In this document: positions 39,501-45,500 of the stretch, piece by piece
Layout of the letters: each line of letters starts with the position of its first letter
How positions within the stretch are numbered: position 1 is the first letter of the stretch
NCBI RefSeq assembly: GCF_054482595.1
Contig: NZ_CM137008.1
Length of the DNA stretch: 64,000 bases
Reading direction: 5' to 3' (one strand)
Program-made: the position numbers

Positions 39501-42500
39501 ATGACCGCCAACGACTGGATTCTTCCTTGGTTTATACTGGTGCGCATAATGTATATTATGTTAAATCATGTCTGAGTGATGCGAAGTGCTTTTCTGGTAG
39601 TCGTTATTCGTTCAGGGTTCAAGAACTTAAGCCTCTCCTCTTTCATAATTGGCCTGTGCATGGAGAAATAGCCTGGTTATTCCCTGCCCCATGCTAAGAG
39701 CGCAGTGTCTGTCGCATAGACACTGCATACGAAAACACCAGAGGGTGCTGTTACTTATTTAAGGACGGAGCTCCGCCGTTGGCTTCAATATCAAGCTGAA
39801 TGATTGTGATACCAATGTTTCCAGTAATGCAGCTGTTGCATTCCTGGGTACTACTGTCACCAGTAATGACGATACGTTAGCGCTGCAGAGTTCAGCGGCA
39901 GGCTCTGCCCAAAATGTCGGTATTCAAATTTTGGACCGTACGGGTGAGGTATTAATACTTGATGGGGCCACTTTTAGTGCTAAAACCGACTTGATTGATG
40001 GCACGAATATACTGCCATTCCAGGCTCGTTATATTGCTCTCGGGCAGTCCGTAGCTGGTACTGCAAACGCTGATGCGACCTTCAAAGTTCAATATCTATA
40101 ATTCAATCTTAAGGTGGCTATACGTCATCTGAAATTGAAACAGGGTGTGTGTGGCATGGCTACGCACACCCGAGCGATTTACCAATATTCATCTCATTTT
40201 TAATGAGAAATGGTTTGTATTTGGAGCGCTATGAAAAATCACATAATATCTAAACTATCAATAAACAACAGTAGTTAAACTTACTGTTATTTAAAATATT
40301 TACTTTGTAGCAAGGTTTTCCTATTAAAAGAGAACCAACATTTATTACAAACGCATTAAGTCTGGAAACCCGGCGACTCGCCAATGTATTAGCAACATTA
40401 ATCGATTGTCTGATGTAACGGTTTTCCCGCTTATCCTCTTAACACATGGAGAATGCATCAGATGCAAACTACGCGTACCCCCTACTCTATTTCCTTTATG
40501 GCGACAGTGTTACTTTTATTGCTCTTTGCTTGCCATAGCACCGTTGCCAACGCAGCTGTCGCACTGGGTGCGACGCGGGTAATTTATCCGGCAAACCAGA
40601 AACAGGTTTTATTGCCTGTCACGAATAATGATCCTGCCAGTGTCTATCTCATTCAGTCATGGATAGAAAATGCAGGTGACCAAAAAGACACCCAGTTTGT
40701 CATTACCCCACCGCTTTTTTCCATGCAAGGTAAAAAAGAGAATACGCTGCGGATAATCAACGCTACTAATCATCAGTTACCAGGCGACCGTGAAAGCCTG
40801 TTCTGGGTGAATGTTAAAGCTATTCCTGCTATGGAAAAAGACCAGAAGAATGAGAATACATTACAGCTGGCAATTATTAGCCGCATAAAAATGTTTTATC
40901 GCCCCACGAACCTGGCAATGGCACCTGAAGAAGCGCCTGCAATGCTTCGGTTTCGTCGCAGCGGTAGCAAACTCACGCTTATTAATCCAACGCCCTATTT
41001 CATTACCGTAACAAATATGAAAGCAGGAAATAGCAATCTCCCAAACACCATGGTGCCGCCAAAAGGTGAAGTATCGGTGGATATCACGCATGCTGCAACC
41101 GGGGATATCAGTTTTCAGACGATCAATGATTACGGTGCATTAACTCCGCGTATTAAGGCAACCATGCAGTAAGCCAGTGACCTAATTAATAATAAACTCA
41201 ATCGGAATTAATAATGACAGCCTTTCGTGCCGCATTTAAGGCATATCGTATGCATCAGGTGTTAATAATGCCTCGCTTTGCACGGCTTACCATTGCCCTT
41301 GGCTTAGCAACTGCGGTATTTCCCGTTGACGCAGAGTATTATTTTAATCCACGGTTTTTAAGCAATGATCTTGCTGAATCTGTCGATTTATCCGCCTTTA
41401 CTAAGGGACGCGAGGCACCACCTGGTACATATCGGGTCGACATTTATTTGAACGACGAATTTATGACTAGTCGGGATATTACTTTTATTGCAGATGATAA
41501 TAACGCAGAACTCATCCCATGCCTGAGTACAGATCTTCTTGTCAGTCTTGGTATAAAAAAAATAGCGTTATTAGACAATAAAGAACATTCGGCAGAAAAA
41601 CATGTGCCGGACAACAGCGCATGCACACCACTTCAGGATCGTTTGGCCGACGCATCAACTGAGTTTGATGTTGGTCAGCAACATTTGTCACTCTCCGTTC
41701 CGCAAATTTATGTTGGCAGAATGGCTCGCGGCTATGTTTCTCCTGATCTGTGGGAAGAAGGAATAAATGCTGGGCTTCTAAACTATAGTTTTAATGGTAA
41801 TTCTATTAATAATCGTAGTAACCATAATGCAGGAAAATCAAACTATGCATATTTGAATTTACAGAGTGGCATCAACATTGGTAGTTGGCGACTACGCGAT
41901 AACTCAACGTGGAGTTATAACAGTGGGAGTAGCAATTCATCTGACAGCAATAAATGGCAGTAGACTGGCCCCCTGAATCTCCAGACAACCAATATCACTT
42001 ATTTAAGTGATAGTCTTAATACTAGTTTTTAGACTAGTCATTGGAGAGCAGATGATTGATGTCTTAGGACCGGAGAAACGCAGACGGCGTACTACACAGG
42101 AAAAGATCGCTATTGTTCAGCAGAGTTTTGAACCGGGAATGACAGTCTCCCTTGTTGCCCGGCAACACGGTGTGGCAGCCAGCCAGTTATTTCTCTGGCG
42201 CAAGCAATACCAGGAGGGAAGTCTTACTGCTGTGGCCGCAGGAGAACAGGTCGTTCCTGCCTCTGAACTTGCTGCCGCCATGAAGCAGATTAAAGAACTC
42301 CAGCGCCTGCTCGGCAAAAAAACGATGGAAAATGAACTCCTTAAAGAAGCCGTTGAATACGGGCGTGCAAAAAAGTGGATAGCGCACGCGCCCTTATTGC
42401 CCGGGGATGGGGAGTAAGCTTAGTCAGCCGTTGTCTCCGGGTGTCGCGTGCGCAGTTGCACGTCATTCTCAGACGAACCGATGACTGGAAAGATGGTCGC

Positions 42501-45500
42501 CGCAGCCGTCACTCAGATGATACGGATGTGCTTCTCCGTATACACCATGTTATCGGAGAGCTGCCCACATATGGTTATCGTCGGGTATGGGCGCTGCTTC
42601 GCAGACAGGCCGAACTTGATGGTATGCCTGCGATCAATGCCAAACGTATTTACCGGATCATGCGCCAGAATGCGCTGTTGCTTGAGCGAAAACCCGCTGT
42701 ACCGCCATCGAAACGGGCACATACCGGCAGAGTGGCTGTGAAAGAAAGTAATCAGCGATGGTGCTCTGACGGGTTCGAGTTCCGCTGTGATAACGGAGAA
42801 AAACTGCGAGTCACGTTCGCGCTGGACTGCTGTGACCGTGAGGCACTGCACTGGGCGGTCACTACGGGCGGCTTCAACAGTGAAACAGTACAGGACGTCA
42901 TGCTGGGAGCGGTGGAACGCCGTTTCGGCAACGAGCTTCCGGCGTCTCCAGTAGAGTGGCTGACGGATAATGGTTCATGCTACCGGGCTAATGAAACACG
43001 GCAGTTTGCCCGGATGTTGGGGCTTGAACCGAAGAACACGGCGGTGCGGAGTCCGGAGAGTAACGGCATAGCAGAGAGCTTCGTGAAAACGATAAAGCGT
43101 GACTACATCAGTGTCATGCCCAAACCAGACGGGTTAACGGCAGCAAAGAACCTTGCAGAGGCATTCGAGCATTATAACGAATGGCATCCGCATAGTGCAC
43201 TGGGTTATCGCTCGCCACGGGAATATCTACGGCAGCAAGCCAGTAATGGGTTAAGTGATAACAGGTGTCTGGAAATATAGGGGCAAATCCAGGCAGCATA
43301 TCAATACGTCGGCTGAACGTGACATTATTCCCTTACGCTCACGGTTAACGGTAGGTGATAGTTATACCGATGGCGATATTTTTGATAGTGTGAACTTTCG
43401 TGGCCTCAAAATAAATTCAACAGAAGCGATGTTGCCCGATAGCCAACATGGTTTCGCTCCTGTGATTCATGGTATTGCCCGTGGAACCGCACAAGTGAGT
43501 GTAAAACAGAACGGATACGATGTTTATCAGACTACTGTTCCACCCGGCCCTTTTACTATTGATGATATCAACTCTGCGACCAATGGTGGTGATCTGCAAG
43601 TAACCATAAAAGAGGCAGACGGCAGTATTCAGACATTATATGTTCCTTATTCGTCTGTTCCGGTTCTCCAACGTGCTGGATATACGCGTTATGCGCTTGC
43701 CATGGGGGAATATCGTAGTGGAAATAACCTGCAAAGCTCTCCCAAGTTCATACAAGGTAGCTTGATGCATGGTCTGGAAGGAAACTGGACACCTTATGGC
43801 GGAATGCAAATTGCAGAAGATTATCAGGCCTTCAACCTTGGTATTGGGAAAGATTTAGGACTTTTTGGTGCCTTTTCTTTCGATATCACGCAGGCCAATA
43901 CGACACTTGCAGATGGCACCCGTCACAGTGGGCAATCGGTTAAATCCGTCTACAGCAAATCCTTCTACCAGACAGGAACCAATATCCAGGTCGCAGGATA
44001 TCGCTATTCTACGCAAGGTTTTTATAACTTATCCGACAGTGCCTACAGTCGAATGAGTGGTTACACCGTCAAGCCTCCTACCGGAGACAGCAATGAGCAG
44101 ACACAATTTATTGATTATTTTAATCTGTTCTACAGTAAGCGTGGTCAGGAACAAATAAGCATCTCTCAGCAGCTTGGAAATTACGGTACGACATTTTTCA
44201 GTGCCAGTCGCCAAAGTTACTGGAACACGTCACGCAGCGACCAGCAAATATCATTTGGATTAAATGTGCCGTTTGGTGATATTACGACTTCACTGAATTA
44301 CAGCTATTCCAATAATATATGGCAAAACGATCGGGATCATTTACTCGCTTTTACGCTTAATGTTCCCTTCAGTCATTGGATGCGTACAGACAGTCAGTCG
44401 GCATTTCGTAATTCAAACGCCAGTTACAGTATGTCAAACGATTTGAAAGGCGGCATGACCAATCTATCGGGGGTTTATGGCACTCTGCTGCCGGATAATA
44501 ACCTGAATTATAGCGTTCAGGTCGGTAACACCCACGGAGGTAATACATCGTCTGGCACCAGTGGTTACAGTTCTCTTAATTATCGTGGAGCTTACGGTAA
44601 TACGAATGTCGGTTACAGTCGGAGTGGTGACAGCAGCCAGATCTATTACGGAATGAGTGGTGGGATTATTGCTCATGCTGATGGCATCACCTTTGGACAG
44701 CCGCTGGGCGACACAATGGTTCTGGTTAAGGCTCCTGGCGCTGATAATGTCAAAATAGAGAACCAGACCGGAATTCATACCGACTGGCGTGGCTATGCAA
44801 TATTACCATTTGCGACAGAATATAGAGAAAATCGTGTCGCTCTTAACGCGAATTCCCTTGCAGATAATGTTGAACTGGATGAAACCGTAGTCACTGTCAT
44901 CCCAACTCACGGTGCTATTGCCAGAGCAACATTTAATGCACAAATCGGCGGGAAAGTATTAATGACGTTGAAGTACGGTAATAAAAGCGTTCCATTCGGT
45001 GCAATTGTCACTCACGGAGAGAATAAAAATGGCAGCATTGTCGCGGAAAATGGTCAGGTTTATCTGACTGGACTTCCACAGTCAGGGAAATTACAGGTTT
45101 CATGGGGCAATGATAAAAACTCAAACTGTATTGTCGATTACAAGCTTCCTGAAGTCTCTCCTGGAACCTTGCTGAACCAGCAGACAGCAATCTGTCGCTA
45201 AGGAACAATAGATTATGAAATACAATAACGTTATTTTCCTCGGTTTATGTCTGGGGTTAACCACCTATTCTGCTTTATCCGCAGATAGCGTTATTAAAAT
45301 TAGCGGGCGCGTCCTCGATTATGGCTGCACAGTCTCATCGGATTCGCTTAATTTTACCGTAGATCTCCAAAAAAACAGTGCCAGACAATTTCCAACGACC
45401 GGTAGCACAAGTCCAGCCGTCCCTTTTCAGATTACGTTAAGTGAATGCAGCAAAGGGACAACGGGGGTTCGGGTTGCATTTAACGGTATTGAGGATGCAG

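Follow-up and report, generated by a model that had tools for sequence, protein, structure and literature searches.

Results

IS2 interrupts the F9 usher gene

The DNA analyzed here is a 64,000-nt window of contig NZ_CM137008.1 (assembly GCF_054482595.1). It carries the F9 (Yde/Fml; ydeQRST) chaperone-usher operon between hipBA and ydeP, with the genes in the order major subunit, chaperone, usher, ydeS, ydeR and ydeQ. The usher gene is interrupted by a 1331-bp IS2 element flanked by a 5-bp GGCAG duplication, and both were confirmed to the base. The features of the locus, in window coordinates, are:

39769..39770, junction of an 877-bp deletion relative to Escherichia coli O157:H16 Santai, with 1 nt of microhomology
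39770..40101, + strand, feature starting at the deletion junction, from the comparison with Santai
40462..41172, + strand, F9 periplasmic chaperone gene, intact, 100% nucleotide identity to Santai
41214..41963, + strand, F9 usher 5' fragment, codons 1-249, ending at a TAG formed by the first 3 bases of IS2
41956..41960, left target-site duplication GGCAG (usher nt 743-747)
41961..43291, + strand, complete IS2 (IS3 family), 1331 bp, oriented like the F9 usher gene
41961..42002, + strand, left inverted repeat (IRL) of IS2, about 41-42 bp, aligned with IRR, beginning TAGACTGGCCCCCTGAATCTCCAGACA
42052..42417, + strand, orfA (InsC/TnpA, 121 aa), protein identical to the K-12 copy
42369..42375, + strand, A6G slippery site AAAAAAG, -1 frameshift joining orfA and orfB
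42375..43280, + strand, orfB (InsD/TnpB, 301 aa), 10 aa differences from K-12
43251..43291, - strand, IS2 right inverted repeat (IRR), terminating in GGGGCAAATCCA
43292..43296, right target-site duplication GGCAG
43297..45201, + strand, F9 usher 3' fragment, codons 250-883 and stop, with the remaining Usher barrel (to aa 795) and PapC_C (aa 804-868)
45215..45745, + strand, ydeS, intact, downstream of IS2
45758..46261, + strand, ydeR, intact, downstream of IS2
46321..47235, + strand, ydeQ adhesin, intact, downstream of IS2

The window IS2 is complete, as the original prediction had it, and every part needed for activity is intact: both inverted repeats, orfA, the A6G motif and orfB. The range first assigned to it, 41956-43296, comprises the element together with both copies of the duplication. 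The 5' terminus TAGACTGGCCCCC and the 3' terminus GGGGCAAATCCA are typical of IS2 (TAGACTGG at the start and CAAATCCA at the end), and the inverted repeats are imperfect. The length of IRL is the value given in the IS2 literature (PMC3299598). The orfA product scores 276 bits against NCBIfam NF006928, 'IS2 repressor TnpA' (cutoff 229), and the orfB product scores 709.7 bits against NF006918, 'IS2 transposase TnpB' (cutoff 597). OrfB contains the DDE-region motifs WCSDGF, WLTDNGS and PESNGIAES, the same as in K-12, and we take its catalytic residues to be the DDE triad of the IS3 family in general. The -1 frameshift at A6G yields the OrfAB transposase (PMC3299598). Only one IS2 end pair is present in the 64-kb window, and full-length copies 100% identical to it were found on the chromosomes and plasmids of many E. 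coli. The intact parts of the element and the occurrence of identical copies at many different loci suggest that it is apparently still active.

IS2 entered the usher gene between nt 747 and 748 and duplicated GGCAG, and the direct repeats lie where they had been predicted. Joining 41214-41960 to 43297-45201, which removes IS2 and one GGCAG, restores a frame of 2652 nt (883 codons plus stop) with 0 internal stops that reads SDSNKWQHINTSAERDIIPLRS over the join, exactly as the original prediction had written it. The restored gene has 0 nucleotide differences over 2652 nt from the annotated intact Santai usher, WP_040234717.1. The usher is thus otherwise intact as first claimed, but the count of about 885 codons is corrected to 883. 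Its domains follow in the order PF13954 PapC_N (aa 43-195), PF00577 Usher (aa 213-795) and PF13953 PapC_C (aa 804-868), and the best NCBIfam model, NF011740, scores 986 bits, slightly below its 995-bit cutoff.

The 5' fragment retains the signal peptide and PapC_N, with just 37 barrel-domain residues. The first bases of IS2, TAG, would end usher translation after codon 249, and the truncated product would consist of the signal peptide, the N-terminal domain and these 37 barrel residues. A protein of this extent would provide no usher pore, so F9 fimbriae would not be assembled and the window strain is predicted to have lost F9 function. F9 fimbriae are adhesins expressed at low temperature. 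A search of the right end of IS2 for an outward promoter that could serve ydeSRQ revealed nothing promoter-like, and promoter-like sites are scarcer in this region than in shuffled sequence.

A second lesion removes the F9 promoter

Over the full 64 kb, the only differences between the window and Santai are 3 SNPs, one 1-bp indel, the 877-bp deletion and IS2. With IS2 removed, the two sequences are 100.000% identical over 6896 bp. The original prediction made no mention of the deletion at 39769|39770, which is a second lesion in the operon. The deletion corresponds to 2432-3308 of the Santai comparison sequence (L022) and takes out the homolog (TAGTCA-N18-CATAAT) of the F9 promoter mapped in CFT073 (PMC3966885) along with the first 231 nt (77 codons) of the major-subunit gene, which is therefore truncated in the window. 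It was not found in 5426 complete genomes. The deletion is recent, occurred in the same lineage and is unrelated to IS2. Together with the IS2 insertion, loss of the promoter and of the start of the major-subunit gene would leave the F9 operon dead twice over. A common deletion breakpoint at window position 39769 was considered and rejected as an artefact of the window's own deletion; the deletions in OkiPb01676, EC130 and K-12 all differ.

The K-12 deletion covers 3279 bp, starting 79 nt beyond the -10 element of the promoter and reaching usher nt 1425. Its right end (usher nt 1425/1426) corresponds to window 43974/43975, 679 bp downstream of IS2, and its junction has 1 nt of microhomology and no IS or IS remnant. 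A relation between the window IS2 and the larger deletion of K-12-like strains, raised earlier as an open question, is rejected on account of the different endpoints and the IS-free K-12 junction.

IS2 insertions recur at the same GGCAG

The search for E. coli with an uninterrupted usher found the empty site in 3693 of the 5426 genomes, many at 100% identity. The window allele, defined as this junction with this IS2 variant, occurs in 0 of the 5426 complete genomes, where the best matches at the same site are 96.5-96.7% identical. Nineteen other independent IS2 insertions were mapped in the F9 usher gene among these genomes, between usher nt 644 and 1530, and all of them (19/19) have 5-bp duplications. 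The identical GGCAG at usher nt 743-747 was also struck in at least four other lineages, with IS2 in the + orientation in PA45B and D10 and in the - orientation in EPSSH018 and CREC-2. Including the window, there are five events at GGCAG, three in the + and two in the - orientation, which differ in IS2 variant and usher allele. The usher alleles of the four other strains are 0.75-2.9% apart, and their IS2 copies are 0.9-4.9% apart. The probability that 4 or more of 19 insertions fall on the given position is P = 4.7e-9. Independent insertions at one position in unrelated lineages, in both orientations and at a frequency above chance, identify GGCAG at usher nt 743-747 as a genuine preferred IS2 target, a hot spot. 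Searches for the hot-spot junction in two other collections with a valid pattern in both orientations returned 0 matches in metagenome_contigs and 0 in genome_contigs.

To our knowledge, IS2 has no target consensus. Alignment of 17 sites gave none that was convincing; a T-G-A at positions -5 to -3 was weak. Likeness of the target to the IS2 inverted repeats, a relation known from some other IS elements, was rejected, the best ungapped matches being no better than those of shuffled sequence. On a broader scale, both halves of the usher gene have split matches at a frequency of about 1-1.4% versus 0.06% in neighbouring ydeP. Rates are similar in the 5' and 3' kilobases, which does not support a regional hot spot inside the usher. 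The F9 usher gene overall tolerates or attracts IS insertions, and relaxed selection can explain the regional excess.

Discussion

The strongest competitor to target preference is that repeated IS2 hits in the usher reflect selection for F9 loss, or full neutrality. Disruptions of the f9 operon occur in 40% of 42 genomes, with every phylogroup A strain among them (PMC3966885), usher split matches are about 20-fold commoner than those in ydeP and similar in the 5' and 3' halves, and the window lineage has damaged the operon twice. However, selection acts on the gene and not on one nucleotide position, so it cannot account for recurrence at the same 5 bp, and five independent insertions there in both orientations are left unexplained. 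In addition, in a laboratory evolution experiment with K-12, whose cryptic ushers are thought to be silenced, usher genes took IS2 in at least 12 of 331 events against about 2 expected; the cryptic fimbrial genes of K-12 are H-NS-repressed (PMC3966885). We consider selection or neutrality an unlikely source of the repeated hits, but one that deserves to be kept in view.

Target preference at GGCAG stands as an observation, and its reason can be proposed only tentatively. GGCAG may be a structure- or protein-directed hot spot, with IS2 preferring the AT-rich, probably H-NS-bound, ushers of cryptic chaperone-usher operons, a proposal on which we are almost evenly divided and lean slightly against. 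The ushers that would exemplify the preference are the F9 usher, yqiG in MG1655, and htrE, yhcD, yraJ, ybgQ and yehB from laboratory evolution. If the proposal is true, IS2 would be a systematic rather than a random driver of fimbrial pseudogenisation in E. coli, and the GGCAG site would be a convenient natural substrate for defining IS2 target choice.

The window insertion could also be old and inherited from an ancestor shared with PA45B and D10, in which case gene conversion from other copies in each genome would later have replaced the IS2 sequences. The three + orientation strains agree in site, orientation and duplication, and the IS2 copies (4-5% apart) have diverged to a similar or somewhat greater degree than the flanks (2-2.7% apart). 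Yet the window flanks are the uninterrupted Santai allele with 0 differences in 6.9 kb, which makes the insertion younger than the split from Santai. In two more strains the IS2 at this site points the other way, an arrangement that descent cannot produce, and the site is empty in most genomes of all lineages, so many precise excisions would be needed. Common descent is therefore very improbable. The insertion is instead very recent and private, because copies elsewhere match this IS2 at 100% and the allele is missing from all 5426 complete genomes.

The possibility that IS2 marks a rearrangement endpoint, either through an IS2-mediated adjacent deletion or inversion or through recombination between two IS2 copies, draws on the fact that such endpoints often carry IS elements and on the deletion 2.2 kb upstream in the same operon. 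The identical 5-bp duplication on both sides and the two flanks, contiguous in and 100% identical to the uninterrupted reference, refute this reading, and no IS lies at the junction of the 877-bp deletion, which is separate from IS2; we give the reading practically no weight. IS2 is a simple insertion and not a rearrangement endpoint, and the original prediction of a recent, simple event is borne out by the same collinear flanks and missing allele. Misassembly classically arises from IS copies, but both junctions here are clean and have a perfect 5-bp host duplication, which an assembler misplacing a repeat would not generate, and four finished genomes also have IS2 at this site, so an assembly artefact is equally negligible.

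By analogy with the literature, a complete IS2 copy would have transposed into the F9 usher by the copy-out/paste-in route of the IS3 family, in which a figure-of-eight intermediate would give a minicircle that makes a staggered 5-bp attack on the target. We found no evidence contradicting the basic reading of a simple IS2 insertion. A simple, recent IS2 knockout of the F9 usher in a doubly dead operon, at a GGCAG that is a preferred target, is the joint explanation in which we have very high confidence. The event itself is an ordinary gene knockout of a kind already known. A strain that would be unable to make F9 fimbriae calls, on its own, for routine pseudogene annotation, in which the usher is entered as interrupted by IS2 and the major-subunit gene is marked as truncated. 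The modest broader point is that IS2 targets include a disproportionate share of usher genes, in nature as well as in the laboratory. This and the recurrence at five bases, with at least five separate hits, offer a concrete way to test how IS2 chooses its targets and why the decay of cryptic fimbrial operons is so ready.

Comparison with known IS2 insertions and usher disruptions

K-12 IS2A (MG1655 381260-382590) is also 1331 bp and shares with the window IS2 the termini, the orfA/orfB layout, the A6G frameshift, a 5-bp duplication and a 100% identical OrfA. The two align without gaps at 95.6% identity and differ by 59 nucleotides and by the 10 aa in OrfB, and the window variant is common on other chromosomes and plasmids. 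The K-12 ydeT truncation resembles the window lesions in that it too leaves the F9 usher inactive, and it takes out the major-subunit gene, but it retains the promoter and its endpoints match neither window lesion. IS2I of MG1655 also disrupts a chaperone-usher usher gene, but in a different operon and a different usher, 71 nt into yqiG.

The f9 operons surveyed by Wurpel et al. 2014 are the same operon as in the window, between hipBA and ydeP, and their disruptions are deletions, truncations and insertion elements, with a variable 5' region (PMC3966885). The term IS2 occurs 0 times in that paper and no recurrent site is given (PMC3966885). Long-term stationary-phase K-12 cultures undergo IS2 bursts with candidate hot spots (PMC7858067). 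The data from these cultures contain IS2 hits in cryptic usher genes, namely htrE (6), yhcD (2), and yraJ, ybgQ, yehB and the ydeT remnant (1 each) (PMC7858067). Positions yehB nt 740-744 and ybgQ nt 1509-1513 resemble F9 usher 743-747 and 1507-1517 in number only; protein alignment shows that they are non-homologous, and their DNA contexts are unrelated. The cultures thus resemble the window in having IS2 in usher genes, but the laboratory events are at other positions, and the ydeT hit corresponds to nt ~1611-1615 of the full-length usher compared to 743-747 in the window.

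A complete IS2 copy interrupts the F9 usher gene

One complete IS2 element lies in the fimbrial usher gene, as the original prediction held, and no further IS2 ends occur elsewhere within the 64-kb window. The features of the element and its target are as follows.

41214-41963, interrupted usher ORF, ending at the IS2 TAG
41956-41960 and 43292-43296, GGCAG target duplication, directly outside both IS2 ends
41961-43291, IS2, 1331 bp, start TAGACTGGCCCCCTGAATC, end GGGGCAAATCCA (read from window 41800-43450)
42052-42417, orfA, 121 aa, protein without differences from K-12 OrfA
42369, A6G slippery site
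42375-43280, orfB, 301 aa, 10 substitutions relative to K-12

Alignment with K-12 IS2A (MG1655 381260-382590) is gap-free with 59 mismatches (95.6% identity), and the WCSDGF, WLTDNGS and PESNGIAES motifs of OrfB are free of substitutions relative to K-12. OrfA and OrfB score 276 and 710 bits against the NCBIfam IS2 TnpA and TnpB models, above the curated cutoffs of 229 and 597, respectively. All defining features that could be tested identify the element as IS2. IS2 is present in 4899 of the 5426 complete genomes searched (median, 4 places per genome), and copies that match at 100% over the full 1331 bp are found in many E. coli, both on chromosomes and on plasmids. The window copy is therefore complete, belongs to a widespread IS2 variant and retains all parts required for activity. 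IS2 transposes through a figure-of-eight and a minicircle followed by symmetrical target attack that generates 5-bp repeats, and OrfAB is the product of frameshifting at the A6G site (PMC3299598). The window insertion would have followed this published figure-of-eight and minicircle route. A palindrome just inside the IS2 left end, CACTTA-NN-TAAGTG, has TT at its centre (42002-42003, IS2 nt 42-43) and AA in K-12 IS2A, which looks like a flipped loop.

Joining 41214-41960 to 43297-45201, which removes IS2 and one repeat, restores a continuous 2652-nt usher frame with its sole stop at the end that reads ...SDSNKWQHINTSAERDIIPLRS... across the join, as predicted; the usher is otherwise intact, and its length is 883 codons rather than the predicted 885 or so. 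The restored protein contains PapC_N (aa 43-195), usher barrel (aa 213-795) and PapC_C (aa 804-868) domains. In annotated relatives, the locus sits between hipBA and ydeP with the gene order major subunit, chaperone, usher, ydeS, ydeR and ydeQ, and the operon is the F9 (Yde/Fml) chaperone-usher operon with the F9 usher as the interrupted gene. The insertion point follows usher codon 249 and the frame is closed by TAG, the first IS2 triplet, so that the product retains the N-terminal domain but ends 37 residues into the barrel. Usher function is probably lost, given this truncation. The chaperone, ydeS, ydeR and ydeQ are all intact.

The insertion is simple and recent

Over all 2652 nt, the restored usher is identical to the intact gene annotated in Santai (WP_040234717.1), an E. 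coli O157:H16 strain, and the window without IS2 is 100.000% identical to Santai across 6896 bp. Because the IS2 flanks are collinear with Santai, the insertion is not at a rearrangement endpoint. The empty site is found in 3693 of the 5426 complete genomes, many of them 100% identical over 1 kb, and the junction with the window's IS2 variant in none (best single-piece matches, 96.5-96.7% identity). The near-zero divergence from Santai and the absence of the junction from other genomes show that the insertion is young and private to the lineage, in agreement with the simple, recent event originally proposed.

Besides IS2 and an 877-bp deletion, three SNPs and one 1-bp indel separate the whole 64-kb window from Santai. 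Two SNPs (38155 and 38692) are nonsynonymous changes in hipA (38140-39462), T6S and G185R in the HipA toxin kinase; both are derived (T6 and G185 in K-12 and Santai) and may weaken the toxin or affect persistence. The third is at 1637 in ydeE. The 1-bp deletion is at 13072 in the region of yneK, already a frameshifted pseudogene in Santai. At 32244-37665, a large autotransporter gene (ECSE_1600 family, K-12 yneO) is broken into two ORFs, 1354 and 442 aa long; the Santai annotation also marks a frameshift in this gene, which is therefore an older pseudogene.

A second lesion removes the F9 promoter

The F9 operon is not otherwise intact, which amends the original prediction. No major-subunit ORF was found in the window, and alignment to CFS3313 and Santai locates an 877-bp deletion at 39769|39770 with 1 nt of microhomology. 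The deleted segment (2432-3308 of the Santai locus, L022) includes TAGTCA-N18-CATAAT, which is homologous to the experimentally mapped f9 promoter and lies 258 nt before the ATG, together with the first 231 nt (77 codons) of the major-subunit gene. In CFT073, f9 transcription begins 251 nt upstream (PMC3966885). What is left of the gene is as follows.

39770-40101, major-subunit remnant, last 110 codons only

The exact junction occurs in 0 of 5426 complete genomes and the deletion is private to the window lineage. The same interval is shortened in other ways in at least 154 of these genomes, which agrees with the variable f9 5' region described previously (PMC3966885). Deletions between a yneL-like HTH pseudogene and the F9 major-subunit gene differ among lineages, with sizes that include 665 bp, 1416+202 bp and 3279 bp in the OkiPb01676, EC130 and MG1655 loci compared, and this interval appears to be deletion-prone.

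A relationship between IS2 and the K-12 deletion, raised originally as a possibility, was rejected. MG1655 lacks window 39770-43974; relative to an undeleted structure, its loss is 3279 bp, which begins 79 nt past the promoter -10 element and ends at usher nt 1425. The right endpoint lies 679 bp downstream of GGCAG, the left one falls within the segment deleted in the window, and the junction shows 1 nt of microhomology but contains no IS sequence. The K-12 endpoints differ from both window lesions; therefore, the K-12 deletion, the 877-bp deletion and the IS2 insertion arose as three independent events. In K-12 the F9 promoter homolog is retained and, 79 nt beyond its -10 element, joins usher nt 1426 (MG1655 1590002-1590333 region); the ydeT remnant and ydeSRQ may still be transcribed from this promoter.

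IS2 has inserted repeatedly at the same site

Two junction queries, one for each orientation and each made of an usher flank joined to one end of IS2, retrieved 25 complete genomes that carry IS2 in this region of the usher. Mapping of 19 representative loci gave 19 additional independent insertions at usher nt 644-1530, 11 in the same direction as the gene and 8 opposite, each with a 5-bp duplication. Four are at the window's exact GGCAG: PA45B and D10 in the same direction, EPSSH018 and CREC-2 in the opposite one. The five same-site alleles, window included, are pairwise 0.75-2.9% apart in the usher and 0.9-4.9% in IS2; this divergence and the presence of both orientations establish the insertions as independent events, and a very conservative count is still three. 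The probability that at least 4 of the other 19 fall at the window's position is 4.7e-9 if insertion is uniform over the ~950 nt sampled and 2.4e-11 under a genome-wide uniform model. The GGCAG site is a real IS2 hot spot.

Large insertions split the match to the 5' kilobase of the usher in 52 of 3757 genomes, that to the 3' kilobase in 50 of 5197 and that to neighboring ydeP in 3 of 5370. Gene-wide, the pattern is thus less specific, and the excess could be explained if a dispensable gene tolerates insertions. IS2 also adjoins or lies inside other F9 genes (ydeR, 'fimbrial protein') in TUM18780 (H15) and Z1323CEC strains (H87-H89), so IS2 damage to the operon reaches beyond the usher.

The GGCAG target has no similarity to the IS2 ends and 17 insertion sites yielded no target consensus. 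None has been reported for IS2, and a role for intrinsic curvature was proposed (PMC3299598). The usher is AT-rich (44% G+C; window, 47%; IS2, 53%), and the f9 promoter is bound by H-NS (PMC3966885). The working explanation for the hot spot is a preference for local DNA structure, or one directed by nucleoid proteins, that would act on top of relaxed selection.

Comparison with known IS2 insertions in usher genes

Among 331 new IS2 insertions in a 1200-day K-12 culture, htrE was hit six times, yhcD twice, and yraJ, ybgQ, yehB and the ydeT remnant once each; these 12 insertions in usher genes compare with an expectation estimated at ~2. The authors of that study were unable to tell hot spots from selection (PMC7858067). 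The MG1655 yqiG usher is likewise interrupted by IS2 (copy IS2I). IS disruption of f9 operons and usher genes is already documented, and the window insertion is an event of this known kind and a matter of routine annotation; only the repeated insertion of IS2 at exactly the same site is mildly new.
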